Numbered from the stretch's first letter, positions 14,387 to 33,520 are shown. The stretch is DNA of 38,871 nt from a bacterium (GCA_021844355.1 JAKBTP010000203.1:1-38871), one strand, 5' to 3'. The notes: generated by a model not told the origin, from the sequence alone. Made by a program: numbers and translations.

Positions 14387-14454
14387 CGCTCGATTATCCC
14401 CGCGCCGCTGCCGGCTTGCCTTGAGCCCCCTCAGCCCGTCAGCATTGGGTTGCA

Positions 14455-15720
14455 GTGCTGCTGTCTGCCTTCCCGAGCCCGCAACCCCGGTTGCCACTGG
14501 GCACCCTGGGCGCTGAGTTCGCCATCGGGGCGACCTTCCTCATCCACATCGCCATCGTGGGCTACATCCTCGGGGCCGCCGGTATCGCCCCCTTCATGGA
14601 GCTGGCCGGGAGGCGACCCGGGGCCAGCCCCAACTGCCTTCGCTATGCCCGGGGGCTGGCGCATTCGGTCCTCTATCTGTACAGCTTCGGGGCCACCTGG
14701 GCGGTCTTCGCGGTGGTGCTGCTGACGGGGCTCTACGGCCGCCTCATCGGTACCCTGCTCAACCTCCTGCTGCTCCCGCTGACCATCGCCTTCGCCAGCT
14801 TCTTCGTGGGCATCCCCCTGCTGCTGCTCTACGTGTACGGGTGGGAGCGACTGGGGCCGAGGCTCCACCTGGGGGTGGGCCTCGCATTCGCCCTGATCCA
14901 ATACCTCTTCCTCTTCATGATCGTCCAGCTGGACAGCTTCGCCCTAACCCCGGGGACGGCGGTCAGCGCGGCTCACGCCATGTACTCGCCGAGCTACCCC
15001 TGGCTGCTGCTCCACTACGCCGGCGCCACCCTCTCCTGGTCGGCGCTGGTGCTGGCGGCGATCGCCGTCTGGAGGGCGCGGCGTGCCAAGACCGAGGAGG
15101 AGCGCCAGTACCACACCTGGACGAGCCGGGTCACCTTCGCCATCGGGTCGATCTTCCTTCTGGCCCAACCGATCTCCGGGTTCCTTCTGGCCGAGGCGAT
15201 CAAGACCAGCTCCATCGGGGCCTTCGACAACCTGTTCGTCTTCAACTCCGGAAGCATGTTCATCGGCCAGGTGGGTCTTCTGGCGGTGGTGGTGGTGGGG
15301 GCGAACCTCGTCTTCTGGCTGCACCGGGGACCGTCGTCCGGACCGGGCGCGGGGCTGACTGCGATCTCCCTGCTGGGGATGGCGGGCACAGCGCTGCCGG
15401 CTGCCGTCCTCCCCTCGGATCTCGTCTGGCTGCGCTACACGGCGCTCTTCGTGGCGTTCATCGCCACCGCGATCAACCTCGGCCGCTACCTTGTCGAGGT
15501 CCGTCGGGGGGGCGCCGGGGTGCCGCTGGCCCCCATGGTCCCGCGGGCCATGGGCGCGGTGGCTGTGGCGGCGCTCGCGCTCACCATCTTCATGGGGGTC
15601 GTGAAGGAGAACGCCAAGCTCCCCTGCGGCATAGATGCCGGCACCGGGCAGACCTCCTGCCTGCTCTCGCTGCACCAATCGGCGCAGAACTTCAACGCTC
15701 CGCCGGGGACCCTTCCATGA
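14455..15720 (+). CDS. cytochrome bd subunit-I-like membrane protein, degenerate paralogue (A)
   Basis: About 9-10 TM. By-eye matches to CydA landmarks: TM1 His (FLIHIAIVG), LPLTIAFASFFVGIPLLLLYVYGWERLGPRLH versus CydA [33 protein letters not shown], TM5 His (LLHYAGATLSWSALVLAA), and C-terminal GVVKENAKLP. It lacks the two helix-3 Glu. GTG start at 14455. Confidence 0.6.
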   Translation: MLLSAFPSPQPRLPLGTLGAEFAIGATFLIHIAIVGYILGAAGIAPFMELAGRRPGASPNCLRYARGLAHSVLYLYSFGATWAVFAVVLLTGLYGRLIGTLLNLLLLPLTIAFASFFVGIPLLLLYVYGWERLGPRLHLGVGLAFALIQYLFLFMIVQLDSFALTPGTAVSAAHAMYSPSYPWLLLHYAGATLSWSALVLAAIAVWRARRAKTEEERQYHTWTSRVTFAIGSIFLLAQPISGFLLAEAIKTSSIGAFDNLFVFNSGSMFIGQVGLLAVVVVGANLVFWLHRGPSSGPGAGLTAISLLGMAGTALPAAVLPSDLVWLRYTALFVAFIATAINLGRYLVEVRRGGAGVPLAPMVPRAMGAVAVAALALTIFMGVVKENAKLPCGIDAGTGQTSCLLSLHQSAQNFNAPPGTLP

Positions 15721-15950
15721 ACTATCAGGACTTCGAGTCGGCCTGGTACCTGGGGCTGATCATCACCTCCTTCTTCGTGATCATGCTCGCAGGGTTCTGG
15801 ATGGCCATCCGCCGAGTCCGCCAGCTCTTCGTGGCCGGGGACACGATGTCCGGCTGGCTGACCATGGGAGCCAGCTTCTTCACCTTCGTCTTCTTCCTGG
15901 GCCTCTGCCTCAGCCTCTTGATCCTGCTGGTGGTGCGCGGCAGTGCCTGA
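15717..15950 (+). CDS. small two-TM membrane protein (77 aa)
   Basis: ATGA overlap with the stop of the preceding gene (15717-15720). Two hydrophobic helices (WYLGLIITSFFVIMLAGFWMAI, GASFFTFVFFLGLCLSLLILLVV). GC3 bias. It is embedded in the C-terminus of the longer track ORF 14841..15950. Confidence 0.55.
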   Translation: MNYQDFESAWYLGLIITSFFVIMLAGFWMAIRRVRQLFVAGDTMSGWLTMGASFFTFVFFLGLCLSLLILLVVRGSA

Positions 15951-16461
15951 CCAGGAGCTGGCCATCTCACAGCGTCGGATGTCCCGGCGCAAGTTCATGA
16001 CCCTGGGCATCCAGGCGACCGGTGCGGGGATCGGCCTCCTCATTGGGGCTCCGATCGTGGGCTCGATCCTCAGCCCAGCCTTCTACAAGGGCCGCTACCC
16101 ATGGGTGATGGTGGCCGACATCCAGCACGTCCCGGTCGGGGTCCCCACCGCTTATGTGGTCCTCATGGACCAGGGCGGGGACGCCTGGCAGGTGCCGCCC
16201 GTGCCCCGCACGGTCTACGTGGTCAAGCTCAACCTGAACGGCAAGGTGCAGCTCATCACCCTGTCCAACGTCTGCACCCACATGCAGTGCGACGTCCACT
16301 GGGACATCAACCTCAACGTGTTCCTCTGCCCCTGCCACGGTGGCCTCTACAGCATTGACGGGACCAACATCGGCGGCCCCCCCCCACAGCCGCTCTTCCG
16401 CTACCAGCACAAGTTGGTCGGCAACACCCTGTACGTCCGCAACGTGCTCACGGAGGGGTAG
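15943..16461 (+). CDS. Rieske [2Fe-2S] protein with twin-arginine signal
   Basis: Tat motif SRRKFMTLG plus TM anchor. Cluster boxes CTHMQCDVHW and CPCHGGLYS (bc-type, with disulfide Cys). GTG at 15943 overlaps the upstream stop by 8 nt; ATG at 15979 is an alternative. Confidence 0.9.
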   Translation: MPDQELAISQRRMSRRKFMTLGIQATGAGIGLLIGAPIVGSILSPAFYKGRYPWVMVADIQHVPVGVPTAYVVLMDQGGDAWQVPPVPRTVYVVKLNLNGKVQLITLSNVCTHMQCDVHWDINLNVFLCPCHGGLYSIDGTNIGGPPPQPLFRYQHKLVGNTLYVRNVLTEG

Positions 16462-16464
16462 GGG

Positions 16465-17673
16465 ATGGCCGCCGAGAGAAGCCGTCTGGCAGGTCGCCTG
16501 AGCCGGCCGTTCGCCGGGATCATGGCCACCACCTACAGGTGGGTGGACGAGCGGTTGGGGGTCACCGACCTGGTCCACCAGCTCCTCTATGAGGCGGTGC
16601 CGCGGCGGGGAGCGTGGGCCTACTCCCTGGGCAGCGCGACCCTGATCCTGATCGTGAACCAGATCGTGACCGGGATGTTCCTGCTGTGGACCTACGTGCC
16701 CTCAACCACCGAGGCCTGGGAGAGCCTCAACTTCACCGAACGGCACGACGAGTTCGGGGCCATCGTGCGGGGGATGCACCTCTGGGGCGCCTACGTGCTC
16801 TTCGTGGTCATCGGGCTGCACATGGTCCGCACCTTCGTGAGCGGCTCCTACAAGAAGCCTCGAGAGCTCAACTGGATCGTGGGCGTGGTCCTCTTCCTGC
16901 TGGTGCTGGGGCTGGGGATCACCGGGGCGATGCTGCCCTGGGACCAGGCCGCCTACTGGACGGCAACCGTGGTGACCCACGTCGTCGAGTACTTCCCCAT
17001 CTTCGGGACCCAGTTGCAGGAGATCCTCCGGGGCGGGCCCCAGATGGGGCCGGCCACCCTGACGCGCTTCTTCGCGATTCACATCTGGCTGCTGCCGGCC
17101 CTGCTGGTTCCCCTCATCGGGCTGCACCTGATCTTGCTTCGGCGTCACGGCGAGCACGGGTCCTGGGTCAACTACGAGGGGGTCGAGGAGGAGACCGCGG
17201 AAGAGCGGGCCCGGCGGATGGCTCACGTCGAGTACCCATACCCGGCCATACCCTCGGACCCCGGATATGCGGTGCCGGTGGACCTCGACGAGTTCTTCCC
17301 CTCCCAGGTGTTCAAGGACTCGGTGGTGAGCTTCGGGCTCGTGCTCCTCATCTTCGTCATGGCGGTGGTGGTGGGCGCCCCCCTGGAGCGCGCGGCCAAT
17401 CCGGCCGCCCTCAACTACGTCCCCACCCCGGAGTGGTTCTTCCTCCCGCTGGACCAGATGCTGGTGCAGTTCCCCCAGGCGTGGATGATCCCGGTCGGGG
17501 TCTTCATCGTTCCGGGGATCGGGACCACCCTACTGATCTTGGTACCCTTCCTCGACCGGACCCCGGGTCGGGAGCCATGGCGCCGCCCCGAGGTGATGAT
17601 CCCGGCCCTCTTCGTGGTGCTGTTCCTCGTCTTCGAGGCGCTGCTGGCGGTGAACCGGCTCTTCAACCTCTGA
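16465..17673 (+). CDS. cytochrome b (fused b6-like N-domain plus subunit IV-like C-domain)
   Basis: Haem ligand pairs GMHLWGAYVLFVVIGLH (H-x13-H) and AIHIWLLPALLVPLIGLH (H-x14-H). Qo-loop motif TPEWFFLP. 402 aa with no Cys residues. Confidence 0.9.
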   Translation: MAAERSRLAGRLSRPFAGIMATTYRWVDERLGVTDLVHQLLYEAVPRRGAWAYSLGSATLILIVNQIVTGMFLLWTYVPSTTEAWESLNFTERHDEFGAIVRGMHLWGAYVLFVVIGLHMVRTFVSGSYKKPRELNWIVGVVLFLLVLGLGITGAMLPWDQAAYWTATVVTHVVEYFPIFGTQLQEILRGGPQMGPATLTRFFAIHIWLLPALLVPLIGLHLILLRRHGEHGSWVNYEGVEEETAEERARRMAHVEYPYPAIPSDPGYAVPVDLDEFFPSQVFKDSVVSFGLVLLIFVMAVVVGAPLERAANPAALNYVPTPEWFFLPLDQMLVQFPQAWMIPVGVFIVPGIGTTLLILVPFLDRTPGREPWRRPEVMIPALFVVLFLVFEALLAVNRLFNL

Positions 17674-17674
17674 T

Positions 17675-19066
17675 ATGCACTTGATCCTCACTTCCACCCC
17701 GCACCTCACCCCGGTCCCCATCTCCACCGGTGTGGCGACCGCCCTGGTCGCCCTGCTGATGCTTGGCCACATCCAGTTCGCGGCCTTCCAGCAGGGCGGG
17801 TACATCATCCTGGCCGTCACCGACTTCATGGGCTGGAAGCGTCGCAACCCCCACTACGACCGCTTCTCCAAGGGGCTGGTCACAGTGCTGGGGGCGACCT
17901 TCGCGGTGGGGGGCTCCCTGGCGATCTTCGCCGTGATGGTCCTCTTCCTGGGGCTCTGGAGCCACTTCTTCGTGACCCTGGAGCGGATCCTGTTCTGGCC
18001 CTTCGTGGCCGAGGCCGCCGCCTTCGTCGGCGAGATCATCTGCCTCTACCCGCTGTACGCGCGCTGGGACCAGCTGGGACGGGTGAGGGGGCTGCGGGTG
18101 GGTCTCGAGCTCCTCCTCTTCATCAACGCCAGCATCCAGATGCTGATGATCAACGTGGTGGCCTCCTACATGCTGACGCCCCGGCCGGCCTTCAACCTGC
18201 CGCTCATCCTCATGAACCCCACGGAGATCCCTCTGGAGATGCACCGCTTCGTGGGCAACATCGCCTTCGCCGGGGCGATGGTGGCGCTGGTGGCGGGGAT
18301 CCGCCTTCTCTGGCGCTCCCGTCAGCAGCTGCACCGCGCCTACCTGGACTGGATGGGGCACTACGGGCTGATGTGGGCGGTGGGCTTCACCATCGCCCAG
18401 CCCCTGGTCGGGTGGGAGTACGCCAAGGAGATCCAGCTCCACGCCTACGCCTCGTGGTACGAGATGATGCTGGGCGGTCTGTCGGTGGCCTTCCTCTTCC
18501 AGGTGTTCCTCCTGGGGGCGATCTTCACCGTGGGGATCTTCTACCTCTGGCGCCGGGTCCGCGTCAGCGGCTTCCGCTCGCCGGCGCTGGCGGTGTGCAC
18601 CGCCCTCTCCTTCGCGGCCTGGCTGCTTATATCCACCCCTTCATCGCTGGCCTGGAGCTACGAGAGCGTCTTCGCCGCCAACGCCAATGTCCCCATCTGG
18701 CAGGGGGGGCTGCTGATCCCCTGGGGGCAGATGATCCCCTGGAAGCTCACGGCCCTCATCGTCTTCACCGGGGTGGCCATCACCGCGATCACCGTCTATG
18801 CCGTCCACCTCTCCCGGGGCAGGCTGCACTGGGGGGACGCCGGGCGGGGACAGGCCATCTCCCTCATCACCGTGGGCGTGGCCATCTCCCTGATCATGGC
18901 GCTTATGGGGTACATCCGCGAGGACAGCCGGGGCCCCTTCCTGATCACCAACCACATGCTCATCAATCAGCAGCAGAATTACACCCCGCCCTCCACCAGC
19001 GGCCCGGCGCTCAATGGTCCGGCGAGCAATCTGGGGGCCATGGCTCCCACCAGGACCGGACCGTGA
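17675..19066 (+). CDS. cytochrome bd subunit-I-like membrane protein, residue-complete paralogue (B)
   Basis: About 10 TM. TM1 His (LMLGHIQFAAF). FWPFVAEAAAFVGEIICLYPLYARWDQLG versus CydA [29 protein letters not shown] (both Glu retained). TM5 His (EMHRFVGNIAFAGAMVALVAG). C-terminal GYIREDSRGPF versus CydA GWFVAEYGRQPW. The loop after TM6 is only about 20 aa. The ATG lies 1 nt after the cyt b stop. Confidence 0.65.
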   Translation: MHLILTSTPHLTPVPISTGVATALVALLMLGHIQFAAFQQGGYIILAVTDFMGWKRRNPHYDRFSKGLVTVLGATFAVGGSLAIFAVMVLFLGLWSHFFVTLERILFWPFVAEAAAFVGEIICLYPLYARWDQLGRVRGLRVGLELLLFINASIQMLMINVVASYMLTPRPAFNLPLILMNPTEIPLEMHRFVGNIAFAGAMVALVAGIRLLWRSRQQLHRAYLDWMGHYGLMWAVGFTIAQPLVGWEYAKEIQLHAYASWYEMMLGGLSVAFLFQVFLLGAIFTVGIFYLWRRVRVSGFRSPALAVCTALSFAAWLLISTPSSLAWSYESVFAANANVPIWQGGLLIPWGQMIPWKLTALIVFTGVAITAITVYAVHLSRGRLHWGDAGRGQAISLITVGVAISLIMALMGYIREDSRGPFLITNHMLINQQQNYTPPSTSGPALNGPASNLGAMAPTRTGP

Positions 19067-21220: not shown

Positions 21221-21889
21221 TCAGGAGGGGGGGCGCCCGTGGCGCGCCAGATAGGCGGCGGCCTCAGCTCGCCGGGCCACCTCCAGCTTGTCCAGGATGC
21301 TGGACACGTAGTTCTTGATGGTCTTCTCGGCCAGGTGGAGCTCCGCGGCGATCTCCCGGTTGGTGCGCCCAGCAGCCACCCGGCTCAGGATGCGCTCCTC
21401 CTGGGCTGTGAGGCGCGCCAGGCGTTCGTCGCGAAGCCGGCTTCTGGCCTCTCGCCACTGGTCCAGGACCGTCCGGGTGAGGGCCGGGTCCAGCAGGCTT
21501 CCCCCGGCTCCGATGGCCCGGACCGCGGCCACTATCTCCCCACCGCGGATCTGCTTCAGGAGATAACCGGCCGCGCCGGCCATGATCGAGGCGAACAGCG
21601 CCTCGTCGTCCGCGAAGGAGGTGAGCATGAGGACCTTCGTGTCTGGCCTCCGGGCTCGAATCTCCCGGGTCGCCTCGATCCCACTTCCCGACCCCAGGCG
21701 CACGTCCATCAGGACGACGTCGGGGCTGGTGCGCTCGGACTCCCGGATCGCCGCCGCCTCGTCCGCGGCCTCAGCGACGATCTCGAACTCTCCGGAGGCG
21801 CCCAGGACCGCGCGGAGGCCGTCTCGGACCAGCTCGTGGTCGTCGACCAGCATCACCCGCAACCGACTGCGCGGGGGTTGCTCAGCCAT
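21221..21889 (-). CDS. NarL/LuxR-family response regulator (DosR/DevR-like)
   Basis: Receiver domain (RVMLVDDHELVRDGL, VVLMDVRLGSGSGIE, KVLMLTSF) plus LuxR HTH (LTAQEERILSRVAAGRTNREIAAELHLAEKTIKNYVSSILDKL). The ATG overlaps the kinase stop by 8 nt. Confidence 0.9.
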   Translation of the reverse strand: MAEQPPRSRLRVMLVDDHELVRDGLRAVLGASGEFEIVAEAADEAAAIRESERTSPDVVLMDVRLGSGSGIEATREIRARRPDTKVLMLTSFADDEALFASIMAGAAGYLLKQIRGGEIVAAVRAIGAGGSLLDPALTRTVLDQWREARSRLRDERLARLTAQEERILSRVAAGRTNREIAAELHLAEKTIKNYVSSILDKLEVARRAEAAAYLARHGRPPS

Positions 21890-23492
21890 GGGGCACCACC
21901 AGGCGCAGGCGGGCGCCCTGGCCGGGGGCGGAGGTGATCACCAGCCGGCCCCCCAAGCCCCGAGCTCGATCCCGCATGTTCTGCAACCCCTGGCCGCGCC
22001 CCCGCGCCTTACCCACAGCGAACCCCCGACCGTCGTCGGTGATGGTGACCACGGTGGACCTCGCCTGTGCCCGGGCCCGCACCCGGCAGCTGGCGGCCTG
22101 GGCATGCCGGCCGACGTTGGACAGAGCCTCTCTCGTGAGCTGGAGCAGCTCGCCCGCCTGGGCGCCTAGCCGCTCCTCCACCCCTGCATCCACCTCCACC
22201 ACCGTGTGGACCCCGCTTCGGTCCTGGAAGTCCGCCCCCAGGCGACGCAGGGCCTCGGCCAGCCGGCTGGAGCCCAGGATTCCCGGACGGAGCCCGAAGA
22301 TGTACTGACGAAGGTCCCCGATCACCTGGTCGAGCTCCAGCACCGCCCGTTCGAGCCGCTGGCGGGTGACCTCGTCGGCGGCTGGAGCCACGGCCTGCAA
22401 CCCCATGCCGACGGCGAACAGGGACTGGATCACCCCGTCGTGGAGCTCCTTGGCGATCCTCTCCCGCTCGTCCAGCAGGGCCAGCCGCTGCCGCTCGCGC
22501 TGGCTCTGCTGGAACTCCAGGGCCACGGAGCTCTGGGCGGCCAGCGCGGCGAGCATCTCGACCGCCTCCTGCTCCGGCAGCCGTGCCCCGGCGGGTCCCA
22601 GGGCCAGCAGGGCGCCTCCATTGGGCCCTCCTTCCCCGAATGGCAGGACCGCCAGCGGCGCGGTCCGGGGGCCGCGGCCGTTCCGCGTCGCCGCCGGGAC
22701 CTGTATCACCAGCTGCCGCCCCCGCCGGATCGCGCTGACAACGGGATCCCGGGGGAGGGTACCCAGCCTTCGGGTGAGGGTCCTGGCTCCCGGACCCGCG
22801 GCGGCGAGCACCTCGAGCCCCTGCCGAATGCCAGCGTCCGCGCGAACCAAAAGGGCGGTCCCGCCACCGACCAGCTCCCGGCTGTGCGCGGCCACCAGCC
22901 GCAAGACCTCGGACGGTTCACTTCCGGCGAGGGTGGCCTGGGCCACCTCCCGAAGCGCCGCCAGCCAGTGCTGGCGGGACACTGCCTGCTCGTACAGGGT
23001 GGCGTTGGCTACGGCCACCGCCGCCTGGCCCGCGAGCACCTCCAGCGCCTGCTGGTCGTCCGCGGTGAAGGGCAGTCCACCCTGCTTCTCGGTGAGGTAG
23101 ATGCTCCCGAAGACGGTCCGGCGAATTACTACCGGCGCTCCCAGGAAGGTGTGCATGGGCGGGTGATGGGGTGGGAAGCCCACCGACCTCGGGTCTGAGC
23201 CGAGGTCGTCCAGGCGCAGTGGTGGCCCGGGTCGCAGCAGGGCCCCGAGGATCCCCCGGCCCTCTGGAAGGCTCCCGAGGCGGCTCCGCTCGCCGGTGCT
23301 GATGCCGTGGGTGATGAACTGAGAGATCCCGCCCCCTGGACCAAGGACTCCGAGCGCCCCATACCTCGCCCCGGTGAGCTGGCAGGCGAGCCGCACGATC
23401 CGACGCAGAAGCGATGGCAGCGAGAGCTCGGAGGTGAGCGCCAGGCCCGCCTCCAGCAGTAGGTCACGGCGATCGGAGCTGGCGCTGGCCAC
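21882..23492 (-). CDS. GAF-GAF-HisKA_3-HATPase sensor histidine kinase (DosS/DosT-like)
   Basis: First GAF domain: TGARYGALGVLGPGG...GSLPEGRGILGALL...LRLDDLGSDPRSVGFPPHHPPMHTFLGAPVVIRRTVFGSIYLTEK. From memory this closely matches the haem-pocket region of mycobacterial DosS/DosT. A second GAF follows, then H-box ERIAKELHDGVIQSLF, then an ATPase with DDGRGF and GLQNMRDRA. GTG at 23492 verified; the track ORF runs to 23675. Confidence 0.85.
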   Translation of the reverse strand: MASASSDRRDLLLEAGLALTSELSLPSLLRRIVRLACQLTGARYGALGVLGPGGGISQFITHGISTGERSRLGSLPEGRGILGALLRPGPPLRLDDLGSDPRSVGFPPHHPPMHTFLGAPVVIRRTVFGSIYLTEKQGGLPFTADDQQALEVLAGQAAVAVANATLYEQAVSRQHWLAALREVAQATLAGSEPSEVLRLVAAHSRELVGGGTALLVRADAGIRQGLEVLAAAGPGARTLTRRLGTLPRDPVVSAIRRGRQLVIQVPAATRNGRGPRTAPLAVLPFGEGGPNGGALLALGPAGARLPEQEAVEMLAALAAQSSVALEFQQSQRERQRLALLDERERIAKELHDGVIQSLFAVGMGLQAVAPAADEVTRQRLERAVLELDQVIGDLRQYIFGLRPGILGSSRLAEALRRLGADFQDRSGVHTVVEVDAGVEERLGAQAGELLQLTREALSNVGRHAQAASCRVRARAQARSTVVTITDDGRGFAVGKARGRGQGLQNMRDRARGLGGRLVITSAPGQGARLRLVVPHG

Positions 23493-23520: not shown

Positions 23521-23561
23521 CAGGGCCGAAGGTCCCGAAATTGGCGGGACCTTCGGCCCTG
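23521..23561. repeat. perfect 17-bp inverted repeat with 7-nt spacer (candidate operator or 5'-UTR hairpin)
   Basis: CAGGGCCGAAGGTCCCG aaattgg CGGGACCTTCGGCCCTG; arms at 23521-23537 and 23545-23561 are exact reverse complements. It lies 29 nt from the kinase GTG and 71 nt from the NapH-like ATG, in the divergent intergenic region. Confidence 0.9.
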
Positions 23562-23631: not shown

Positions 23632-25182
23632 ATGGCCCTGCCGCTGAAGGAACTTCCGGTCCGTGACCTGCCCATCCGGGTGCGCCAGCCCTCCCGCGCG
23701 GGGCTGGAGGCTCACTTCGGGCCCACCGACCCGCAGCTCGACGTCTCCCGTGATCCCCGGGTGCGCCGCCTGCTCCGCAGCCGGCCCTTCCAGTTCATGC
23801 TGATCCTGCCCAACCAGATCATCTTCTGGCTGGTGATCGTGACCGGCCTGGTGGGGATCCTGGCTCCCACCCACAACTTCGCCACCGTCATCACCTGGTA
23901 CATCTGGTTTTGCGCCGTGTTCATGCTCATGGTGGGGGTTGGCCGCGGCTGGTGCGTCATGTGTCCCTTCGGAGGCTTCGCCGAGTGGGTTCAGCGCCAC
24001 ACGTTCTGGAAGCGTCACGCCATCTCCATCGGCCTCCACCTGCGCTGGCCGGAGTGGCTCAGCAAGTGGGCGCTGCTGCCCTCCGTGGCCATGTTCCTCG
24101 GTCTCACCTGGTTCGAGGAGTACTTCAACATCGCCGGTCCCGGAGATCCCCGGTTCACCAGCTTCCTGGTCTTCTTCGTGATCGGCTCGGCGCTCATCAC
24201 CTTCCTTCTCTTCGAGCGCCGCACCTTCTGCCGCTACCTCTGCCCGCTCACCGCCCTCATCGGGACCGTGGGGTCCACCGGGATGGTGGCCGGGATGCGC
24301 ACCCGCGACCGGGATCGCTGCCTGACCTGCCCCACCAAGGACTGCATGAGGGGCAGTGAGCGCGGCTACCCGTGCCCCTGGTACGAGTGGCCCGGCAGCG
24401 CCACCTCCAACCTGATGTGCGGGCTGTGCACCGAGTGCATCAAGAACTGCCCCTACGACAACGTCGGGGTCTACCTCCAGAAGCCGCTCACCTCAGTCGT
24501 GGCGCCCGTCCGCCGCCGGGTCGATGTGGCGTGGGCGGTGGCCATCCTGTTTGGGCTGGTGATCTTCCAGCAAGTCAATGCGCTGCCCTTCTACGCACCT
24601 CTGGACCGCTGGCTCAACCTTCACACCGGATTCCCCGGATACCCCAACCCGGTCGACTACCTGGCCATCATCGGTGTGGTCGCCCTCCTGGTGGCCGCCT
24701 ACGCCTTCGGGGTGAGGGAGTTCCTGGCCAAGCGCAGCGTGGCCCTGGTGAGATCCGTGCGCCGGGTGCCGGGAAGAGCGGGCTCCTTCACCAGCTGGTT
24801 CGCGCCCCTGGCCTACGGCTTCATCCCCCTCATGGCTGCGGACTACCTCGCCCGGCAGCTGCCGAGGTTCTGGTACCACGCGCCGCGGATCGTCCCCGCC
24901 ATCTCGGATCCCTTCGGATTCGGCTGGAACCTCTTTGGCACGGCCCACTCCTCCCTCTACAACCTCCACCTCCTGAACCCGCAGGGGGTGGTCGTCAGCC
25001 AGGTGGTGGTCACCGCCATCGGCACCCTGGGCGCCGCCTACGCCACCTGGCGGATCTCCGGGCGCGACCTGGCGCCCCTCACCTCCAGGCTGGCCGGCGT
25101 GAGGCTGATCGGCACCTCCGCCGTGGTGGTTGCCGGCCTCGGCGTGGCGGCCCTCTATGTGGCCATGGGTGGGATGCAGTGA
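23632..25182 (+). CDS. NapH/MauN/NosR-type membrane polyferredoxin with extra C-terminal TM domain
   Basis: ATG at 23632 with AAGGAGG 11 nt upstream. TM helices flank GRGWCVMCPFG and ERRTFCRYLCPL (CxxCP/CxxxCP). Cys-rich ferredoxin segment CLTCPTKDC...CGLCTECIKNCP. About 5 further TM helices follow in the last 230 aa or so. Confidence 0.75.
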   Translation: MALPLKELPVRDLPIRVRQPSRAGLEAHFGPTDPQLDVSRDPRVRRLLRSRPFQFMLILPNQIIFWLVIVTGLVGILAPTHNFATVITWYIWFCAVFMLMVGVGRGWCVMCPFGGFAEWVQRHTFWKRHAISIGLHLRWPEWLSKWALLPSVAMFLGLTWFEEYFNIAGPGDPRFTSFLVFFVIGSALITFLLFERRTFCRYLCPLTALIGTVGSTGMVAGMRTRDRDRCLTCPTKDCMRGSERGYPCPWYEWPGSATSNLMCGLCTECIKNCPYDNVGVYLQKPLTSVVAPVRRRVDVAWAVAILFGLVIFQQVNALPFYAPLDRWLNLHTGFPGYPNPVDYLAIIGVVALLVAAYAFGVREFLAKRSVALVRSVRRVPGRAGSFTSWFAPLAYGFIPLMAADYLARQLPRFWYHAPRIVPAISDPFGFGWNLFGTAHSSLYNLHLLNPQGVVVSQVVVTAIGTLGAAYATWRISGRDLAPLTSRLAGVRLIGTSAVVVAGLGVAALYVAMGGMQ

Positions 25183-25213
25183 CGCTGGCCGGAAGGGCGC
25201 GGGAGAGCTTGGC

Positions 25214-27040
25214 ATGAGTATCGATGTCCGCGAGGGAATCGGGCCCGGGCCGGCGGCTCCGGCCCGGCACGCCACGGTGCGGGTGAACAGCGAGCGCTGT
25301 GTCGGCTGCCAGGAGTGCGTCGTGCGCTGCCCCACCGCGGCGCTGGGGCTGGACCAGGAGCGGTGGATCGCCCGAGCCGACGACCGCCTCTGTGTCGGCT
25401 GCCGGCAGTGCGAGCGGGTATGCCCCTATGCCGCCATCTCCGTCAGCGGACCCAAGGTGGTCGGGCCGCGGCACGTCTCGCTCACCCTGTATCCCAGCCG
25501 CCTCCGCGGCAACACGACTGAGGTGAGGCGTGGGTTCAGCACCTGGAAGGACGCCTTGCGAGAGGCCGATCGGTGCCTCGCCTGCCCCGACCCGACCTGC
25601 CTCGAAGGATGCCCGGCGCACAACGACATCCCTCGCTTCATCGCCGCCATCAGGGAGCGGGATCTGCAGGGAGCGCACGCCGTCCTGCGCGAGACCTCGG
25701 TCCTGCCGGACATCTGCAGCCGGGTCTGCGACCAGAGTGTCCAGTGCGAGGGGGCCTGCACCTGGGCGCTGGCTGGCGGGGAGCCGGTGGCGATCGGGCT
25801 TCTGGAGAGGTTCATCACCGACCGAGCGCCGGTGCCTCCTCCCCGAGTGGGCTCGTCCTCCTCGACCCCGCTGAAGGTGGCGGTGGTCGGATCAGGGCCG
25901 GCAGGCTGCGCCGCCGCCTGGGAGCTGCTGGAGGCGGGGGCGAGGGTGACGATGTACGAGAAGGACGACGAGCCTGGCGGGGTCCTGAGATGGGGCATCC
26001 CGGACTTCACCCTCCCGGCCGACGTAGCGCGCCGTCCGGTGACGGCCCTCCAGGAGGCGGGACTGGAGCTGAGGACCGGGTGCGCCGCAGGCGGCGACCT
26101 GACGCTGGCCCAGCTGCTGGAGGAGCACGATGCGCTCCTCCTCGCCCATGGAGCGAGCATCCCGCTGATCCCGCCGGTGCCCGGAAGGGAGCTCTTCGGG
26201 GTCGAGGACGCCACCAACTTCCTCTGGCGGGCGAAGCGGGCCCTGGGAGCGGGCACCACCTTGCCGGAGCTGGGGCCGGGAGCGCGGGTACTGGTGGTCG
26301 GCGGCGGCAACACGGCCATGGACGTGGCGCGCAGCGTGCGCCGCCTCGGAGCGGACGTGACGGCGGTGGAGTGGATGGATGAGCGCTTCACCAGGGTGAG
26401 GCGGGATGAGTTGGCCGAGGCCAGGGAGGAGGGGGTCGAGGTCCGATTCTCCACGACACTGGAGCGGCTCGAGGGTGACGCCCTGGGGGTATCGGCTGCG
26501 TGGCTGCGCCCCACGGTGCAGCGCCGCGTCGGCGATCGTCCCAAGGTCGCGGGCGGCAAGCCGGAGCGCTTGACCGTCAACCGGGTTGTCTTTGCCCTGG
26601 GCTACCGAGTGGACTCTGAGCTGGCCGCGTCCCTGGTCAACTTGCCCCTGCCGCCGGTCGACCTCAGGAAGGCGATTCCGCCACGCCGCTGGCTGGCGAG
26701 CGGGATCCTCTCCGGCGGGTCGGTGGGGCCGTTGGCCCTGGCGCGCGAGGTGACGCTGGCGGCGGCCGAGTCGCCGGCGCAGCGGGGCGGGTGGCTGAGG
26801 TCCCGCCGCAGTTCGGGCGGGGTCGCCCCGGGAGGGAGGGCGGGGTGGTGGACGTGGCTCTGGAGGGAGCAGGGGGTGGTGGCCCTGGATGCCGCGGGGG
26901 CCCCGAGAGGGGAGAGGGTGTGGGCCGTGGGGGACGCTCTGGTGGGGCCCTCCACGGTGGTGGGGGCGATGGCCCAGGGGCGGGAGGCGGCCAAGGCCAT
27001 CCTGGCTGGCTGCCGCCCGCGGGCGGAGTCTCCCATGTGA
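25214..27040 (+). CDS. 2x[4Fe-4S] ferredoxin domain fused to GltD/NfnB-like NAD(P)H-dependent FAD/FeS oxidoreductase
   Basis: CVGCQECVVRCP and CVGCRQCERVCP. GltD-type FeS region CLACPDPTCLEGCPAHNDIPRFI...CSRVCDQSVQCEGAC. Dinucleotide folds VAVVGSGPAGCAAA and VLVVGGGNTAMDVA. Terminal VWAVGDA. ATG at 25214 follows GGGAGAG. Confidence 0.85.
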   Translation: MSIDVREGIGPGPAAPARHATVRVNSERCVGCQECVVRCPTAALGLDQERWIARADDRLCVGCRQCERVCPYAAISVSGPKVVGPRHVSLTLYPSRLRGNTTEVRRGFSTWKDALREADRCLACPDPTCLEGCPAHNDIPRFIAAIRERDLQGAHAVLRETSVLPDICSRVCDQSVQCEGACTWALAGGEPVAIGLLERFITDRAPVPPPRVGSSSSTPLKVAVVGSGPAGCAAAWELLEAGARVTMYEKDDEPGGVLRWGIPDFTLPADVARRPVTALQEAGLELRTGCAAGGDLTLAQLLEEHDALLLAHGASIPLIPPVPGRELFGVEDATNFLWRAKRALGAGTTLPELGPGARVLVVGGGNTAMDVARSVRRLGADVTAVEWMDERFTRVRRDELAEAREEGVEVRFSTTLERLEGDALGVSAAWLRPTVQRRVGDRPKVAGGKPERLTVNRVVFALGYRVDSELAASLVNLPLPPVDLRKAIPPRRWLASGILSGGSVGPLALAREVTLAAAESPAQRGGWLRSRRSSGGVAPGGRAGWWTWLWREQGVVALDAAGAPRGERVWAVGDALVGPSTVVGAMAQGREAAKAILAGCRPRAESPM

Positions 27041-28581
27041 GCGCGGAGGCCGAGCTGGGGTCCGGGATGCCTCCGGTGCCGACCTTCCGGGAGATCCTCG
27101 GGTCGGTGCTGAGACCGCCGCTCCGAGACCACCGGTTCTGGGTGATCCAGGCGCTCATCCTGGCCATCGTCTCCGGGCACCTGGCCCTGGACCTGCGCGG
27201 GGCCCGGCTCCCCGGTGGCATACCCGACTACCCCACGGTGGGGCTCTTCCTGCTACCGGTGATCTATGCCGCGCTTCGCTTCGGGCTGGGCGGGGCCTGT
27301 GCCAGCGCCGCCTGGGGGACGGTCCTGATGGTGCCCGACCTGGTGGTCCTGGACTCACGCTTCGACCTCTGGGGCGATGGGACGCTGCTGGCCATAAGCT
27401 GCGTCGTGGCGGTGGCTGTGGGTCAACGGGTGGAGCGGGAGGGGTCCGCTCGCCGGGGGACAGAGGCCGCCCTGGCCGCCCACCGGGCCGCTGAGGCGCG
27501 CTTCCGGGCGATCTTCGAGGCCTCTTCGGTGCCCGCGTTGGTGGTGGACGCCGCCGGCCGGCTGCGCCAGAGCAATCCCGCCGCCTCGGAGCTGTTCGGT
27601 AGGCGGCTGGAGCAGGGTTCCCTGGCGGAGCTGATCGGGACAGACCCCAGCAGGCGCCTCCTCGGCGGCTCACCACCCCTGGAGCTGGTGTTCATTTCAG
27701 CCTCCCAGGCGACCCTGGTCTTGCATCCGCTGCTGACCAAGCTGCGCGATGAGGGAGGGGGGGAGCTGTTCCAGGTCGCCTTCCAGGACGTCACCGCCGA
27801 GGCCGAGCGCCAGCGGCTGACGGCAGCGTACGCAGCCCAGGCCAGGCAGGCGCAGGAGGACGACCGGGAACGCATCGCTCGAGATATCCACGACGAGCCG
27901 CTGCAGACGCTGATCTACCTCGCCCGGCGCCTGGAGGCCGCGGGTGAGCGGGTGGGTTTGCCCGAGTCGTCGCGTGACGAGCTGGATGCCTTGCGGGTGG
28001 GGATCATGGGCGTCGTCGCCGAGTTGCGCCTGCTCGCCGACGGCCTCCGCCCCCCGGCGCTGGATGATCTGGGCCTGGAGACGTCGCTGCGCCAGCTGGT
28101 CCAGGCCTTTTCCGTCCGCACCGGGCTGGGCGCGGAGGTCCGCACGAGGGGCAGGGAGCTTCCTCTGGACCGGGAGCGCAGGACCGACGTCTACCGGATC
28201 GTCCAGGAGGCGCTCGGCAACGTGGAGCGCCATGCCGGAGCGAGGAGGGTGTTGGTGAGGATCATCTTCACCCTGACGGCTGTCCGGGTCGAGGTCGCCG
28301 ACGATGGCCAGGGCTTCTCCGCAGCGTCCTCGCCCGCCGGCCGGGGGGTGGTGGCGATGCGAGAGCGCGCGGCGCTGGCCGGGGGTCGGGTCGACATAAG
28401 GGCGCTTCCCGGTCAAGGCACCAGGGTCCTGGTCACGGTACCTGTCAGCGACACGCGCGAGGTTGGAGGCCGGCCCAGCCGGGAGCTTCCGCCGGCTTCG
28501 GTCGCCGCCCGTAGAGCTGAGCCGCCGACCCCTCCCGACGCCAGAGCGGGCACCGACGTCGCCGTCGCGGCCCAGGCCTGA
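27037..28581 (+). CDS. membrane-associated PAS-HisKA_3-HATPase sensor histidine kinase (no adjacent response regulator)
   Basis: N-terminal TM helices, PAS-like FRAIFEASSVPALVVDAAGRLRQSNPAASELFG, H-box ERIARDIHDEPLQTLIYL, ATPase DDGQGF and GVVAMRERA. GTG at 27037 makes a GTGA overlap with the upstream stop; ATG at 27067 is an alternative. Confidence 0.8.
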   Translation: MSAEAELGSGMPPVPTFREILGSVLRPPLRDHRFWVIQALILAIVSGHLALDLRGARLPGGIPDYPTVGLFLLPVIYAALRFGLGGACASAAWGTVLMVPDLVVLDSRFDLWGDGTLLAISCVVAVAVGQRVEREGSARRGTEAALAAHRAAEARFRAIFEASSVPALVVDAAGRLRQSNPAASELFGRRLEQGSLAELIGTDPSRRLLGGSPPLELVFISASQATLVLHPLLTKLRDEGGGELFQVAFQDVTAEAERQRLTAAYAAQARQAQEDDRERIARDIHDEPLQTLIYLARRLEAAGERVGLPESSRDELDALRVGIMGVVAELRLLADGLRPPALDDLGLETSLRQLVQAFSVRTGLGAEVRTRGRELPLDRERRTDVYRIVQEALGNVERHAGARRVLVRIIFTLTAVRVEVADDGQGFSAASSPAGRGVVAMRERAALAGGRVDIRALPGQGTRVLVTVPVSDTREVGGRPSRELPPASVAARRAEPPTPPDARAGTDVAVAAQA

Positions 28582-29132: not shown

Positions 29133-29561
29133 CTACTGGAAGAGACGGATGGCTGCCGCGCCCTGCGTGGTGAACGGCGCCGCCACCAGCCAGTCGCCGG
29201 CGTTCCCCTCTTCGAGCATCTGCACCTGGACCACCCGCGGCTTGGCGCCGGGGTTGGTCACCACCACCTGGCACGTGACCTCGTTGGGGTTGACCACCCG
29301 GCAGCTGCCCACCCGGTAGCTGGCGCGAGCGGCCTTCACGCCGTTGAAGAAGGGAAGGAAGGGGGTGGCCGACTCGGCGGGGTTGGTGAGCAGGGTGTAG
29401 GCGTACACCACCGAATGGGCCCGGACGTCGGCGAGGAAACCGCGGAGGGCCAGGCGGGCTGCGGTGGCCGGGCTGGCGCAGGCGGCGAGGAGCAGGCCGA
29501 GGGCCACCAGGAGCGCGGCCACCGCCCCCGGGCGGCGCCAGCTAGCCGGTGACGACCACAC
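29133..29561 (-). CDS. putative lipoprotein, unknown function
   Basis: Signal peptide with lipobox (LGLLLAAC). GTG at 29561 verified, giving a WRRPG n-region; the track ORF starts at 29606. Co-directional with, and overlapping the end of, the cupredoxin gene. Confidence 0.55.
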   Translation of the reverse strand: MWSSPASWRRPGAVAALLVALGLLLAACASPATAARLALRGFLADVRAHSVVYAYTLLTNPAESATPFLPFFNGVKAARASYRVGSCRVVNPNEVTCQVVVTNPGAKPRVVQVQMLEEGNAGDWLVAAPFTTQGAAAIRLFQ

Positions 29562-30027
29562 GGCCCAGCATCCCCGGGTGGAGCGTGCAGTAATAGTCGT
29601 AGACACCGGGCGAGAGGAACTGGACGGCCCACTTGTAGCCAGCCCCCTTGGTGGGGGAGTTGATCAGCTCCTGGTCGATCCACCAGACGTTGTGCTGGTC
29701 GTAGTGGTCGGTCCAGATCCACTCCACCACCGAGCCCACCTTCACGGTCAGCGACTCGGGCACGAACTCGCCCACGGTGTTGACGTTGTGGTAGATGATC
29801 ACCGTGTATTCCGGGTTGACCGGGAGCTTGGGCAGGACCCGCAGCGAGAGGCTGCTGTTCGGCTGGCTCACCTGGTTGCCGGGCGGGATCGCGAGGTGGG
29901 CGTCAGTTGGGTCGCCCACGTCGCCGAAGGCGGAGCAGCTCGACAGGAGCGCCGCCAGGAGCAGGGCGGCGAGCGGCGCAAGGAGGCGTCCTCGGCCCAG
30001 GAGCCGGAGGGGATGGCGCGGCGGCAT
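29542..30027 (-). CDS. amicyanin/plastocyanin-like type-1 copper protein (cupredoxin), lipoprotein
   Basis: Lipobox LLSSC. Copper ligands QHNV (His) and YYCTLHPGMLGRVVV (C-x2-H-x2-M, amicyanin-like spacing). ATG at 30027 verified. It is the C-terminal 161 codons of track ORF 29542..30663. Confidence 0.8.
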   Translation of the reverse strand: MPPRHPLRLLGRGRLLAPLAALLLAALLSSCSAFGDVGDPTDAHLAIPPGNQVSQPNSSLSLRVLPKLPVNPEYTVIIYHNVNTVGEFVPESLTVKVGSVVEWIWTDHYDQHNVWWIDQELINSPTKGAGYKWAVQFLSPGVYDYYCTLHPGMLGRVVVTG

Positions 30028-31714: not shown

Positions 31715-31882
31715 GTGGACCAGCCCGCGCCCTATCTGCACTGGGGGTTCATCCTCATCTCGCTGCCCAACCTGGGCCTGATCATCTTCATGGCTGTGCT
31801 CTTCACTCTGGCCCTCTTCCTGCCCTTCCCGGGGCGCGCCCGCCGCCGCCGGGCATATGAGGAGCGCGACAGTGGGCGCTGA
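31715..31882 (+). CDS. small single-TM membrane protein (55 aa)
   Basis: GTG at 31715 lies 6 nt after GGAGGA. VDQPAPYLHWGFILISLPNLGLIIFMAVLFTLALFLPFPGRARRRR. Strong GC3 bias. Overlaps the start of the following cytochrome b gene. Confidence 0.5.
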   Translation: MDQPAPYLHWGFILISLPNLGLIIFMAVLFTLALFLPFPGRARRRRAYEERDSGR

Positions 31883-32504
31883 GCCGAGGGACGACGCGCC
31901 GGGTCCCCGGAGCTGGACCGGGTCCCTCCGCCGGCTGATCGAGCGCGACCTTCCGATCGAGCACCTCCTTCCCGACCGGGAGCCGGCCTATGTCGGGTCC
32001 TGGGTCTACGTCTTCGGTGTGGTGACCATCGCCGCCTTGATCCTCACCATCGCCAGCGGGGTGGTCCTGGCGTTCTTCGGCCCCCAGTGGTGGCACGTCT
32101 CGCCCCAGGGCCTCTTCTTCAACAGCCTGCACTTCTGGAGTGTGCAGATGTTCTTCGTGTTCATGGTCCTTCATCTCTGGGGACAGTACTTCGGCCAAGG
32201 ATGGCGCGACGGGCGCGCCACCACCTGGATGGTGGGGGTGGTGGTCTTCCTGGTGAGCATCGTCACAGCCTTCACCGGCTACCTCTCCCAGCAGAACTTC
32301 GACTCCCAGTGGATCGCCGTGAACGCCAAGGACGCGATCAACGCCACTGGGGCAGGGGCCTTCTTCAACGTCCTCAACTTCGGGCAGATGTATGGGCTCC
32401 ACGTGATGCTGTTCCCCATCCTGATCATCGTCCTGGTCGGGCTCCACGTCGTCCAAGTGCGCCTCCGCGGGGTGGTCAAGCCCCCGTCTGAGGAGCGGCC
32501 ATGA
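31857..32504 (+). CDS. cytochrome b6-like protein (N-terminal four-helix, di-haem domain only)
   Basis: SLHFWSVQMFFVFMVLH (H-x13-H) and GLHVMLFPILIIVLVGLH (H-x14-H). WMVGVVVFLVSIVTAFTGYLSQ matches the cyt b helix C pattern. Ends after helix D. ATG at 31857; GTG at 31872 is an alternative. Confidence 0.85.
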   Translation: MRSATVGAEPRDDAPGPRSWTGSLRRLIERDLPIEHLLPDREPAYVGSWVYVFGVVTIAALILTIASGVVLAFFGPQWWHVSPQGLFFNSLHFWSVQMFFVFMVLHLWGQYFGQGWRDGRATTWMVGVVVFLVSIVTAFTGYLSQQNFDSQWIAVNAKDAINATGAGAFFNVLNFGQMYGLHVMLFPILIIVLVGLHVVQVRLRGVVKPPSEERP

Positions 32505-33520
32505 AGCGACGCCCGATCGACCAGGAGACCTACTACCGGGGGGTGCCCACCGCCCCCTACGACCTGGTGAAGGAGATCGCCCTGGCCCTCGGTGTGCTGC
32601 TGGTGGTGGTGCTGGTGCTCTCCGCCTTCCTCTCCTCCCCGGACGTGCCTCCGGTCACGATCCAGACCTGGACCAAGTCGGCACCATTGGACTTCCTGCA
32701 AACCGCCACCGCGGAGTTGCAGGGGACCACCATAAGCGCCGACTACGGCCCTCCCTACAACCTCGATGCCGACGGGCTCGACCCTTCGGACACGGGTGCC
32801 TCGGTCCAGACCTGGGGCCCCCTGGCTCCCCAGCTGTGGGCGGGGGTTCACCAGCCGATCAACGCCCCTGAGACCGATGTCATAGCCCCGCTCCGACTCG
32901 CCGGTGTCGGCCGCCCCGGTCTCAGTGCGGCGCTGGCCAGCTACCAGGCGGCCGGCCCCAGCCAGGAGCAGGCCTGGCTCACGGCCTACCAGAAGGCCCT
33001 CACAAAGGCCAGCGTGACGGGGCCATTGGTGCGGGTGCCGGCGGGCGCCTATGGGCCCGTGAACGTGATGATGCAGGCCCTGCTGGCGGACGGGCGGGCC
33101 GGGGCGCTGGACTCTCTCCTGCTCCACAGCGGCCGCTTCTACGTCACCGATTACACCAAGCCGCTGCTCTTCCTCGCGGATGGCGGCTACTTCCCGGGTC
33201 TGGCGGAGGCCCAGAAGCTGACCGGCAGCCAATGGGGGATGATGAACGAGACCGGACGCTACCCCGGGCAGGCCTGGCTCTGGCTGTTCACCCTGTGGTA
33301 CCAGATCCCTCCCTACAACTCCGCCCAGAACGCCGACCTCCTAGTGGTCCTGACCATGGGACTGCTCACCACCCTCCTGTTGCTGGTCCCCTTCATCCCC
33401 GGGCTTCGCGACCTGCCCCGCTGGCTGGGGCTCCATCGGCTGGTTTGGCGGGAGCACTATCGGCTGGAGCGTCAGTACCGGCGGCCCGGTGGCGAAGGAG
33501 GCGGCTCAGCGAGCCGTTGA
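32501..33520 (+). CDS. subunit-IV-like membrane protein with extracytoplasmic insertion of about 210 aa
   Basis: ATGA overlap with the cyt b6-like stop. The N-terminus APYDLVKEIALALGVLLVVVLVLSAFL resembles the start of helix E. The C-terminus WLWLFTLWYQIPPYNSAQNADLLVVLTMGLLTTLLLLVPFIPG resembles the PEWY/helix F-G region, but without PEWY. Residues about 46-255 are hydrophilic. Confidence 0.5.
   Translation: MKRRPIDQETYYRGVPTAPYDLVKEIALALGVLLVVVLVLSAFLSSPDVPPVTIQTWTKSAPLDFLQTATAELQGTTISADYGPPYNLDADGLDPSDTGASVQTWGPLAPQLWAGVHQPINAPETDVIAPLRLAGVGRPGLSAALASYQAAGPSQEQAWLTAYQKALTKASVTGPLVRVPAGAYGPVNVMMQALLADGRAGALDSLLLHSGRFYVTDYTKPLLFLADGGYFPGLAEAQKLTGSQWGMMNETGRYPGQAWLWLFTLWYQIPPYNSAQNADLLVVLTMGLLTTLLLLVPFIPGLRDLPRWLGLHRLVWREHYRLERQYRRPGGEGGGSASR

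Follow-up and report, generated by a model that had tools for sequence, protein, structure and literature searches.

The window analyzed here, a stretch of 38,871 nucleotides of bacterial DNA (GCA_021844355.1, JAKBTP010000203.1:1-38871), carries at positions 23,632 to 27,040 two consecutive genes, here called gene 1 and gene 2, which together probably encode the two subunits of a membrane redox enzyme, one that is conserved and has apparently escaped study; literature searches turned up no paper that describes the pair. The two genes are:

23632..25182, + strand: gene 1, polytopic membrane Fe-S protein of 516 residues with nine transmembrane helices, N terminus inside
25214..27040, + strand: gene 2, cytoplasmic flavoprotein of 608 residues, with an N-terminal 2x[4Fe-4S] ferredoxin domain and an NfnB/GltD-type module

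Gene 1 runs from an ATG at 23632, preceded by AAGGAGG, to a stop codon at 25180–25182. Its product contains the motifs GWCVMCP (residues 106–112), FCRYLCP (199–205), CLTCPTKDC (230–238) and CGLCTECIKNCP (263–274), within which lie a pair of cytoplasmic motifs, CxxCP (C108/C111) and Cx3CP (C200/C204), and a cytoplasmic eight-cysteine 2x[4Fe-4S] domain spanning C230–C273. All 12 motif cysteines are invariant in an alignment of 22 homologues. In an AlphaFold2 (AF2) model derived from the alignment (pLDDT 70, pTM 0.77), four helices precede the cysteine-rich domain and five come after it, these five forming a family-specific C-terminal domain of five transmembrane segments (residues 297–512). The Cys-Pro motifs and the eight-cysteine domain are placed in the cytoplasm because lysine and arginine follow the positive-inside pattern (37 per 221 ‘in’ residues versus 4 per 85 ‘out’ residues, with the N terminus inside), and the cytoplasmic location of the Fe-S domain is independently confirmed by a fusion protein, P0123, in which an NAD(P)H module is inserted within this domain. 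Twin-arginine (Tat) export of the Fe-S domain, to which an ‘ERRTF’ sequence before a mildly hydrophobic stretch might have pointed, was rejected on the grounds of the lysine and arginine count, the arginine-rich loop at 366–381 and the P0123 insertion. No invariant histidine was found in the membrane helices of gene 1 across the 22-homologue alignment, and heme is therefore unlikely. The polar residues invariant in the subfamily are E162, E163, N166, Q313, Q314, N316, N329, Y337, D404, R408 and Q409. Gene 1 is present in a single copy and is the sole Fer4_5 gene of the genome.

The only Pfam family matched by gene 1 is Fer4_5 (PF12801), at 34.4 bits versus a cut-off of 22 and in two stretches (86–122 and the second repeat), and the C-terminal five-helix domain submitted alone matches no Pfam family even at E ≤ 10. 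Searched against the PDB, the sequence gave a chance-level match only (E 0.019), the model returned nothing at E ≤ 0.001 in Foldseek, and a wide VIA-align search with the model reached a best Z of 7.3, with all matches being generic helical bundles over residues 295–516. No solved relative of gene 1 was identified by sequence or by fold, which does not in itself imply a new fold. A Caa3_CtaG identity suggested by one ESM Atlas row (TM-score 0.76) was dropped, as hhalign comparison with the two CtaG proteins of the genome gave a probability of 0.1.

An initial annotation of the window made without database searches, the sequence-only reading, had described gene 1 as NapH-like. The likeness to NapH (which goes with NapG; TIGR02163, Fer4_5) lies in a duplicated pattern of four transmembrane helices, in which a Cys-x-x(-x)-Cys-Pro motif on the cytoplasmic side closes each repeat, and in the cytoplasmic 2x[4Fe-4S] domain that comes next, and the membership in Fer4_5 is borne out by the Pfam score. 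However, gene 1 scores far below the cut-offs of the NapH/MauN family, TIGR02163 and PRK09477 (23.3 bits versus the TIGR02163 cut-off of 213.05, and likewise 18.8 versus 234), only residues 181–277 align, and membership in this family does not hold. Of the two Cx3CP motifs and eight Fe-S cysteines expected in NapH/MauN proteins, gene 1 has Cx3CP as its second motif and eight further invariant cysteines; its first motif is CxxCP. Moreover, unlike NapH, gene 1 continues with five transmembrane helices after the Fe-S domain, its partner is a cytoplasmic NAD(P)H flavoprotein, and neither a NapG/NapA nor a mau context is found in the window or in the 80 related loci described below. A nine-helix core with a C-terminal five-helix domain is not NapH.

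Gene 2 starts with an ATG at 25214, 31 nt past the stop codon of gene 1. Pfam identifies a Fer4 dicluster domain (22–78), Fer4_20 (100–205) and Pyr_redox_2 (221–472), the latter two belonging to an NfnB/GltD-type module in which Fer4_20 with two clusters is followed by flavin adenine dinucleotide (FAD) and NAD(P)H Rossmann domains, as in NfnB, the NfnI large subunit and GltD. All 16 cysteines are invariant among 18 homologues. The closest solved chains are NfnB of T. maritima (4ylf_B, E 3e-70, residues 94–463), the NfnI large subunit of P. furiosus (5jca_L) and GltD (2vdc_G). Consistent with these results, the lengths of both proteins, the distance between the genes, the cysteine motifs and roughly five additional helices of gene 1, and the ferredoxin–GltD/NfnB fusion in gene 2 had all been read correctly from the sequence at the outset, as is now borne out by translation, cysteine invariance, the AF2 model and Pfam. 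An insertion of about 90 residues noted before the final GD motif of gene 2 is likewise real, its size being about 70 residues net when compared with T. maritima NfnB (query 463–552 versus chain 392–410). Part of this insert, about 40 residues, occurs family-wide, and a tryptophan-rich stretch of about 44 residues (WWTWLWR) is confined to Dormibacterota and Chloroflexota.

Despite the shared fold, gene 2 is set apart from the characterized members of its superfamily. It scores below the cut-offs of all GltD models (279.5 versus 471.75 for TIGR01316, its best NCBIfam match; 190.6 versus 447.7 for TIGR01317; 227.1 versus 482.95 for TIGR01318), and the same is true for AegA and YgfT of E. coli, which resemble gene 2 in having an N-terminal ferredoxin domain fused to GltD (210.3 versus 1003 for AegA and 198.2 versus 1154 for YgfT). 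Neither protein of the pair reaches any curated family cut-off, although their parts derive from known superfamilies, Fer4_5 and NfnB/GltD. Gene 2 further differs from NfnB and GltD in the family-specific insert before the GD motif and in having a membrane protein as its obligate partner, and from NfnAB in that the conserved neighborhood of the pair contains no NfnA-like gene. A role as the small subunit of glutamate synthase was ruled out because GltB, the only strong Glu_synthase match in the genome, lies on another contig (C84). A GltB-type gene does not adjoin gene 2 in any locus examined, and the genome has a second GltD-like gene elsewhere.

The nucleotide site offers a clue to the substrate. 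E386 of gene 2, which is Glu or Asp in all 18 homologues and is followed by an invariant tryptophan, lies 18 residues past GGGNTA, at the end of the second Rossmann strand. The NADPH-specific NfnB has V-YRR at this position, whereas in gene 2 the basic YRR is replaced and the sequence reads E-W-M-D. By the classical Rossmann rule, an acidic residue at this site favors NADH. Since E386 is acidic, we infer that gene 2 uses NADH rather than NADPH. Lineage-specific variants of gene 2 carry additional parts. Actinobacterial homologues (L049, L065, L073, L078, L082) are about 735–795 residues long and have a C-terminal flavodoxin-like domain (weak Pfam matches to PF00258/PF12641), which gene 2 of the window lacks. 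Some homologues from Bacillota (L023:8513-10411, L025:4834-6834) have a strongly hydrophobic C terminus of one or two segments that apparently anchors them in the membrane, and the tryptophan-rich, amphipathic insert and this hydrophobic tail look like alternative tethers of gene 2 to the membrane. A small conserved open reading frame (ORF) of unknown family, encoding about 120–146 residues, follows gene 2 in 14 actinobacterial loci.

Close homologues of gene 1 over its full length number more than 700 (55–97% identity), and their source records name them only ‘4Fe-4S binding protein’, ‘polyferredoxin’ or ‘NosR/NirI family’. With one genome taken per species, a relative of gene 1 is encoded in at least 312 species, and the best 80 loci of these were used for the neighborhood counts. 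All 80 come from metagenome-assembled genomes (MAGs) of Dormibacterota, Chloroflexota, Bacillota and Actinomycetota (largely Acidimicrobiales), many of them, judged by isolate names, apparently from studies of mine tailings, soil and peat. Four loci with 60–83% identity to this Dormibacterota operon (L013, L017, L027, L031) belong to soil MAGs whose titles read Nanopelagicaceae, Micrarchaeaceae, Nitrosotalea and Saccharimonadales; such titles look like binning or taxonomy errors rather than gene transfer. Among loci with at least 600 bp downstream of the gene-1 homologue, a gene-2 homologue is found directly 3′, on the same strand and within about 130 nt, in 75 of 75 cases across four phyla, and in many loci the stop codon of gene 1 and the start of gene 2 overlap. 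Identity between phyla is 55–60%. The pairing is obligate and above chance, and co-occurrence of the two genes, proposed earlier as a check, is thereby confirmed.

Natural fusions indicate how the two proteins may fit together. In P0123 (969 residues), the Fer4_20/FAD/NAD module sits between the two halves of a gene-1-type ferredoxin domain: residues 17–217 correspond to residues 44–249 of gene 1 (40% identity), residues 729–935 to 266–478 of gene 1, and about 470 residues in the middle to 88–596 of gene 2 (30% identity). Five more fusions with an inserted GltD module were found among the representatives collected in a wider search (see below). The position of the flavoprotein insertion in P0123 coincides with the place where the ferredoxin domain of gene 2 would be expected to dock. 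Complex prediction, for which residues 40–516 of gene 1 and 1–520 of gene 2 were used owing to the size limit, gave an ipSAE of 0.60 (0.62, 0.58 and 0.60 in individual runs) versus 0.00 for all three controls, with partner pLDDT of at least 75 and contact agreement of at least 94%, which the tool grades as weak support. In calibration, the mark was reached by 58 of 80 solved complexes and by 2 of 110 mismatched pairs, and only 7 of those 80 solved complexes, together with both mismatches, had an ipSAE of 0.60 or below. With gene order and fusions as a strong prior, a physical complex of gene 1 and gene 2 is likely, and the interaction anticipated by the sequence-only reading is supported by the domain-insertion fusions and by a weak pass in complex prediction. 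Overall, comparative evidence gives good support to the complex and to NAD(P)H as its input.

The operon is surrounded by regulatory genes and is followed by a cupredoxin gene:

21221..21889, − strand: NarL/LuxR-type response regulator (Pfam Response_reg and GerE), overlapping the end of the kinase gene
21882..23492, − strand: GAF-GAF-HisKA_3 sensor kinase of the DosS/DosT (DevS) type (Pfam GAF_2, HisKA_3, HATPase_c), divergent from the operon
23521..23561, no strand: perfect inverted repeat of 17 bp between the divergent genes, in their promoter region, candidate operator of a NarL/DosR-type regulator
27037..28581, + strand: second sensor kinase, with about four N-terminal transmembrane segments followed by PAS, HisKA_3 and HATPase domains
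29542..30027, − strand: plastocyanin/azurin-type cupredoxin (Pfam Copper-bind, PF00127, 34.3 bits versus a cut-off of 21.2)

The N-terminal GAF domain of the upstream kinase (residues 24–170) matches DosT (2vzw, E 3e-44) and DevS (2w3d, E 5e-39), so that by GAF-A homology and its HisKA_3 core this kinase is of the DosS/DosT type, with putative heme binding. The likeness to the DosS/DosT–DosR system of Mycobacterium tuberculosis extends to the combination of a HisKA_3 kinase with a NarL-type regulator and to a palindrome in the divergent promoter. However, the half-sites are arranged here as GTCCC-N11-GGGAC, unlike the mycobacterial Dev box, which has them in the opposite order, and the target operon is not known from any described DosR regulon. 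The palindrome core, GGTCCC-N9-GGGACC, occurs once in the window versus 0.10 occurrences expected, and it recurs about 100 nt 5′ of the gene-1 homologue in 10 Dormibacterota loci (L007-L014, L018, L019) and in L027, where gene 1 is 63% identical. Because the core is rare in the window and conserved upstream of gene-1 homologues, the palindrome is likely to be the operator of the adjacent regulator.

The GTG start codon of the second kinase, at 27037, overlaps the TGA of gene 2 (GTGA), and an alternative ATG start is found 30 nt later. Homologues of this kinase are full-length, including the transmembrane part, lack a large outer loop and are encoded beside the pair in 40 of the 80 loci. A HisKA_3 kinase of either type lies near the pair in 52 loci (membrane-PAS type in 40, GAF type in 25, including Bacillota, and both in 13), and a homologue of the NarL-type regulator lies within 7 kb in 52. 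No kinase is found nearby in 24 loci, Chloroflexota among them, and in Acidimicrobiia the membrane-PAS kinase and a response regulator are located divergently upstream of the pair. Both the bracketing of the operon by two sensor kinases and the GTGA coupling, inferred at first from the sequence, are thus confirmed by Pfam and by position, and the association with HisKA_3 kinases is conserved. All-against-all clustering of the flanking ORFs in the 80 loci showed that, besides gene 2, only the HisKA_3 kinase and the NarL-type regulator are widespread, and neither this clustering nor a scan for type-1 copper motifs revealed an exported partner gene conserved across phyla. The cupredoxin of the window lies about 1 kb past the operon; within 7 kb of the pair, the motif scan detected a gene of the same CTLHPGM type in 10 loci of Dormibacterota but in none from other lineages. 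This protein might tentatively be regarded as a partner on the outer face, in a lineage-specific link. The cupredoxin gene overlaps a second ORF (29133-29663, − strand) without a Pfam match, and both are conserved only among the Dormibacterota loci.

The membrane core belongs to a wide family. A profile search with gene 1 yielded 1886 cluster representatives, 337 of them at E ≤ 1e-30 and many longer than gene 1. In 59 long relatives of the core, Pfam identified Cupredoxin_1 (8), COX2 (6), YHS (5), cytochrome c554 (3), AhpC/TSA (2) and NosL (1) domains, in addition to the inserted GltD module (6). The extra domain is usually flanked by a signal or anchor helix on one side and by one more transmembrane helix on the other, an arrangement by which the added domain is exported and the orientation of the core is kept. 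Two proteins combine an exported domain with the inserted module in a single chain: P0180 (1103 residues) has an exported Cupredoxin_1 domain, the core and an inserted NAD(P)H flavoprotein module, whereas in P0234 the exported domain is AhpC/TSA (peroxiredoxin-like). A COX2-like gene precedes and overlaps the gene of P0123, and an ArsR/SmtB-type (HTH_5) regulator is encoded divergently beside P0180 (L096:1868-2176, − strand); regulators of this type are often metal sensors. Cupredoxin-fused relatives without the GltD module have no GltD neighbor in the three contexts examined, and downstream of them lies another small cupredoxin gene. In P0124-P0126, from other metagenomes, and in several ESM Atlas clusters (TM-score 0.71–0.76), found in Cyanobacteria and Thermodesulfobacteriota, the nine-helix Fe-S core is fused to cyclic nucleotide (cNMP)-binding and sigma-54 activator (AAA+) domains, which suggests that it can be used as a membrane redox input for transcription factors.

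Other Fer4_5-type proteins provide a framework for these architectures. NosR/PceC-type NapH-like flavinylated proteins, which share with gene 1 the Fer4_5 membrane core and cytoplasmic Fe-S clusters, have been proposed to link the cytoplasmic or membrane electron pool with extracytoplasmic enzymes (PMC8238504), and NapH, which belongs to the periplasmic nitrate reductase system and is the closest relative that bears a name, is considered to be a quinol dehydrogenase (PMC8238504, citing Brondijk 2002). Gene 1 differs from NosR/PceC in lacking an exported flavin mononucleotide (FMN)-binding domain and in receiving its input from a dedicated NAD(P)H flavoprotein, and an ApbE context was not seen within the window. 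CcoG and FtrD are likewise membrane polyferredoxins of the Fer4_5 type with ties to metal redox or copper proteins: CcoG reduces Cu(II) in cbb3 oxidase assembly and has an unknown electron donor (PMC7558416), and FtrD, of the FtrABCD iron uptake system, is encoded with the Cu-oxidase-like/cupredoxin-like FtrB (PMC7415376). No CcoG or FtrD model is among the NCBIfam matches of gene 1 at E ≤ 0.01, the number of helices is unlike theirs, Fer4_18 and FixG_C are absent from the Pfam scan even at E ≤ 10, and the window contains neither a ccoGHIS nor an ftr context.

Taken together, we tentatively favor the view, held with less than even confidence, that the pair is an NADH:menaquinone-type oxidoreductase other than Nuo and Ndh-2, placed under the control of a DosS/DosR-like system and a membrane-PAS kinase. 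Each gene would supply one subunit of a single Fe-S flavoenzyme bound to the membrane. FAD of gene 2 would oxidize the pyridine nucleotide, presumably NADH, and the electrons would pass through the two [4Fe-4S] clusters of Fer4_20 to the N-terminal 2x[4Fe-4S] ferredoxin domain, which would dock on its 2x[4Fe-4S] counterpart at the cytoplasmic side of gene 1. The electrons would next reach the four-cysteine site (CxxCP and Cx3CP) at the membrane face and finally menaquinone in the nine-helix domain. This would make the pair an NADH:menaquinone oxidoreductase that does not pump and that differs from Nuo, Ndh-2, Nqr and Rnf; the DosS/DosR-like gas or redox sensor and the membrane-PAS kinase would turn it on, and it would recycle NADH under limited respiration. 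The domain reading and the pairing are in keeping with the NAD(P)H:quinone oxidoreductase proposed in the sequence-only reading, and the module is indeed none of Nuo, Ndh-2, Nqr or Rnf; its quinone acceptor, proposed by analogy with NapH only, is tentative, as is the direction of electron flow. A quinone is the simplest acceptor because the subfamily lacks an exported domain and a conserved exported partner, and the lack of an exported partner gene conserved across phyla fits an acceptor that is ubiquitous. The quinone reading also fits the DosS/DosT-like control, since a non-pumping outlet for NADH suits hypoxic cells. Several observations weigh against this assignment. The sub-threshold NapH/MauN score weakens the analogy with NapH, the membrane domain of gene 1 has no invariant histidine, no quinone site was identified, and the residues invariant in the subfamily fall in predicted outward loops, distant from the cytoplasmic clusters. 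Furthermore, the fusions of core relatives to exported redox and copper domains suggest output on the outer face, and the flavodoxin-like domain of the actinobacterial gene-2 forms would be superfluous for a simple wire.

The main rival is an outward electron wire, a serious alternative that we rate as somewhat less likely. Here, cytoplasmic NAD(P)H would supply electrons for an acceptor at the outer face, which might be an exported cupredoxin, a different redox protein or a metal ion such as Cu(II) or Fe(III), and the four-cysteine CxxCP/Cx3CP site, the only candidate center, would be a membrane-embedded stepping stone. In this role, the complex would parallel, on an Fe-S basis, the NADPH-driven ferric/cupric reductases, and, with similarly modest likelihood, the pair would then represent, in its simplest version, a so far undescribed class of trans-membrane reductases that are Fe-S-based, driven by NAD(P)H and equipped with a NapH/NosR-type core and an outer-face acceptor. 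The exported-domain fusions point in this direction, above all P0180 and P0234, in which exported domain, core and NAD(P)H module are united, as do the COX2-like gene overlapping P0123, the ArsR/SmtB-type regulator divergent from P0180, the outward-facing invariant polar residues and the cupredoxin gene 1 kb beyond the operon and in 10 related loci; moreover, other Fer4_5 proteins serve copper enzymes or copper (CcoG, PMC7558416; FtrD, PMC7415376). However, gene 1 itself has no exported domain, an exported partner gene is conserved beside the pair only in Dormibacterota, and the cupredoxin fusion and the GltD module occur mostly apart, as the cupredoxin-fused relatives without a GltD neighbor illustrate.

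Two further explanations appear improbable. The fusions of the core to cNMP-binding and sigma-54 activator domains, the overlap of the second kinase with the stop codon of gene 2 and the presence of this kinase, with about four N-terminal transmembrane segments and no large outer loop, in 40 of the 80 loci would agree with a pair that reports the NAD(P)H/quinone redox state to the membrane-PAS kinase as an accessory input and not as a bulk catalyst. The divergent kinase and regulator of Acidimicrobiia nevertheless show the layout usual for regulators of a target operon, 24 loci, including those of Chloroflexota, have no kinase nearby, a chain of five to six clusters plus FAD is elaborate for a sensor, and an identity of 55–60% across phyla is typical of a catalytic core; a sensory role is therefore quite doubtful. 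Slightly more remote still is electron bifurcation at the NfnB-like FAD, with a branch of high potential leading into the membrane and one of low potential leading to ferredoxin or flavodoxin, or a reverse mode in which a quinol or an external donor reduces NAD(P)+. The closest solved relatives are indeed the bifurcating NfnB and NfnI large subunits, and the flavodoxin-like domain of the actinobacterial homologues (a weak Pfam match) could serve as a second output, but an NfnA-like partner is missing, gene 2 of the window has no flavodoxin domain, and the GltD-type relatives, which have this fold too, act as plain wires. Electron transfer from quinol to NAD+ is uphill by about 250 mV and no energy coupling is evident, so that the quinol-driven reverse reaction, also entertained in the sequence-only reading, is thermodynamically unlikely without an energy input.

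The pair is carried by uncultured groups of soil and mine tailings, namely, Dormibacterota, Acidimicrobiia, Chloroflexota and some Bacillota. If it is indeed a new type of NADH dehydrogenase, reconstructions of the respiratory chain in these genomes miss an entry point, one that is apparently wired to sensors of hypoxia and redox state. Should electrons instead be exported, the pair would explain how NapH/NosR/CcoG-type proteins, with their long-puzzling cytoplasmic clusters, are linked to a cytoplasmic reductant; it would be a prokaryotic heme-free counterpart of the NOX/Fre/STEAP reductases and would suggest from what source CcoG-, NosR- and FtrD-like polyferredoxins draw cytoplasmic electrons, or to what target they pass them. 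Under either interpretation, the natural fusions provide a clear, testable arrangement of the subunits.

The window is unusually rich in respiratory genes. Besides the operon described here, it contains one for Rieske and cytochrome b proteins, accompanied by cytochrome-bd-like proteins, as well as a second pair of the cytochrome b-like kind (14425-19066, 31782-33520). Its G+C content is about 70%, and real genes are distinct by their G+C content at third codon positions (GC3).

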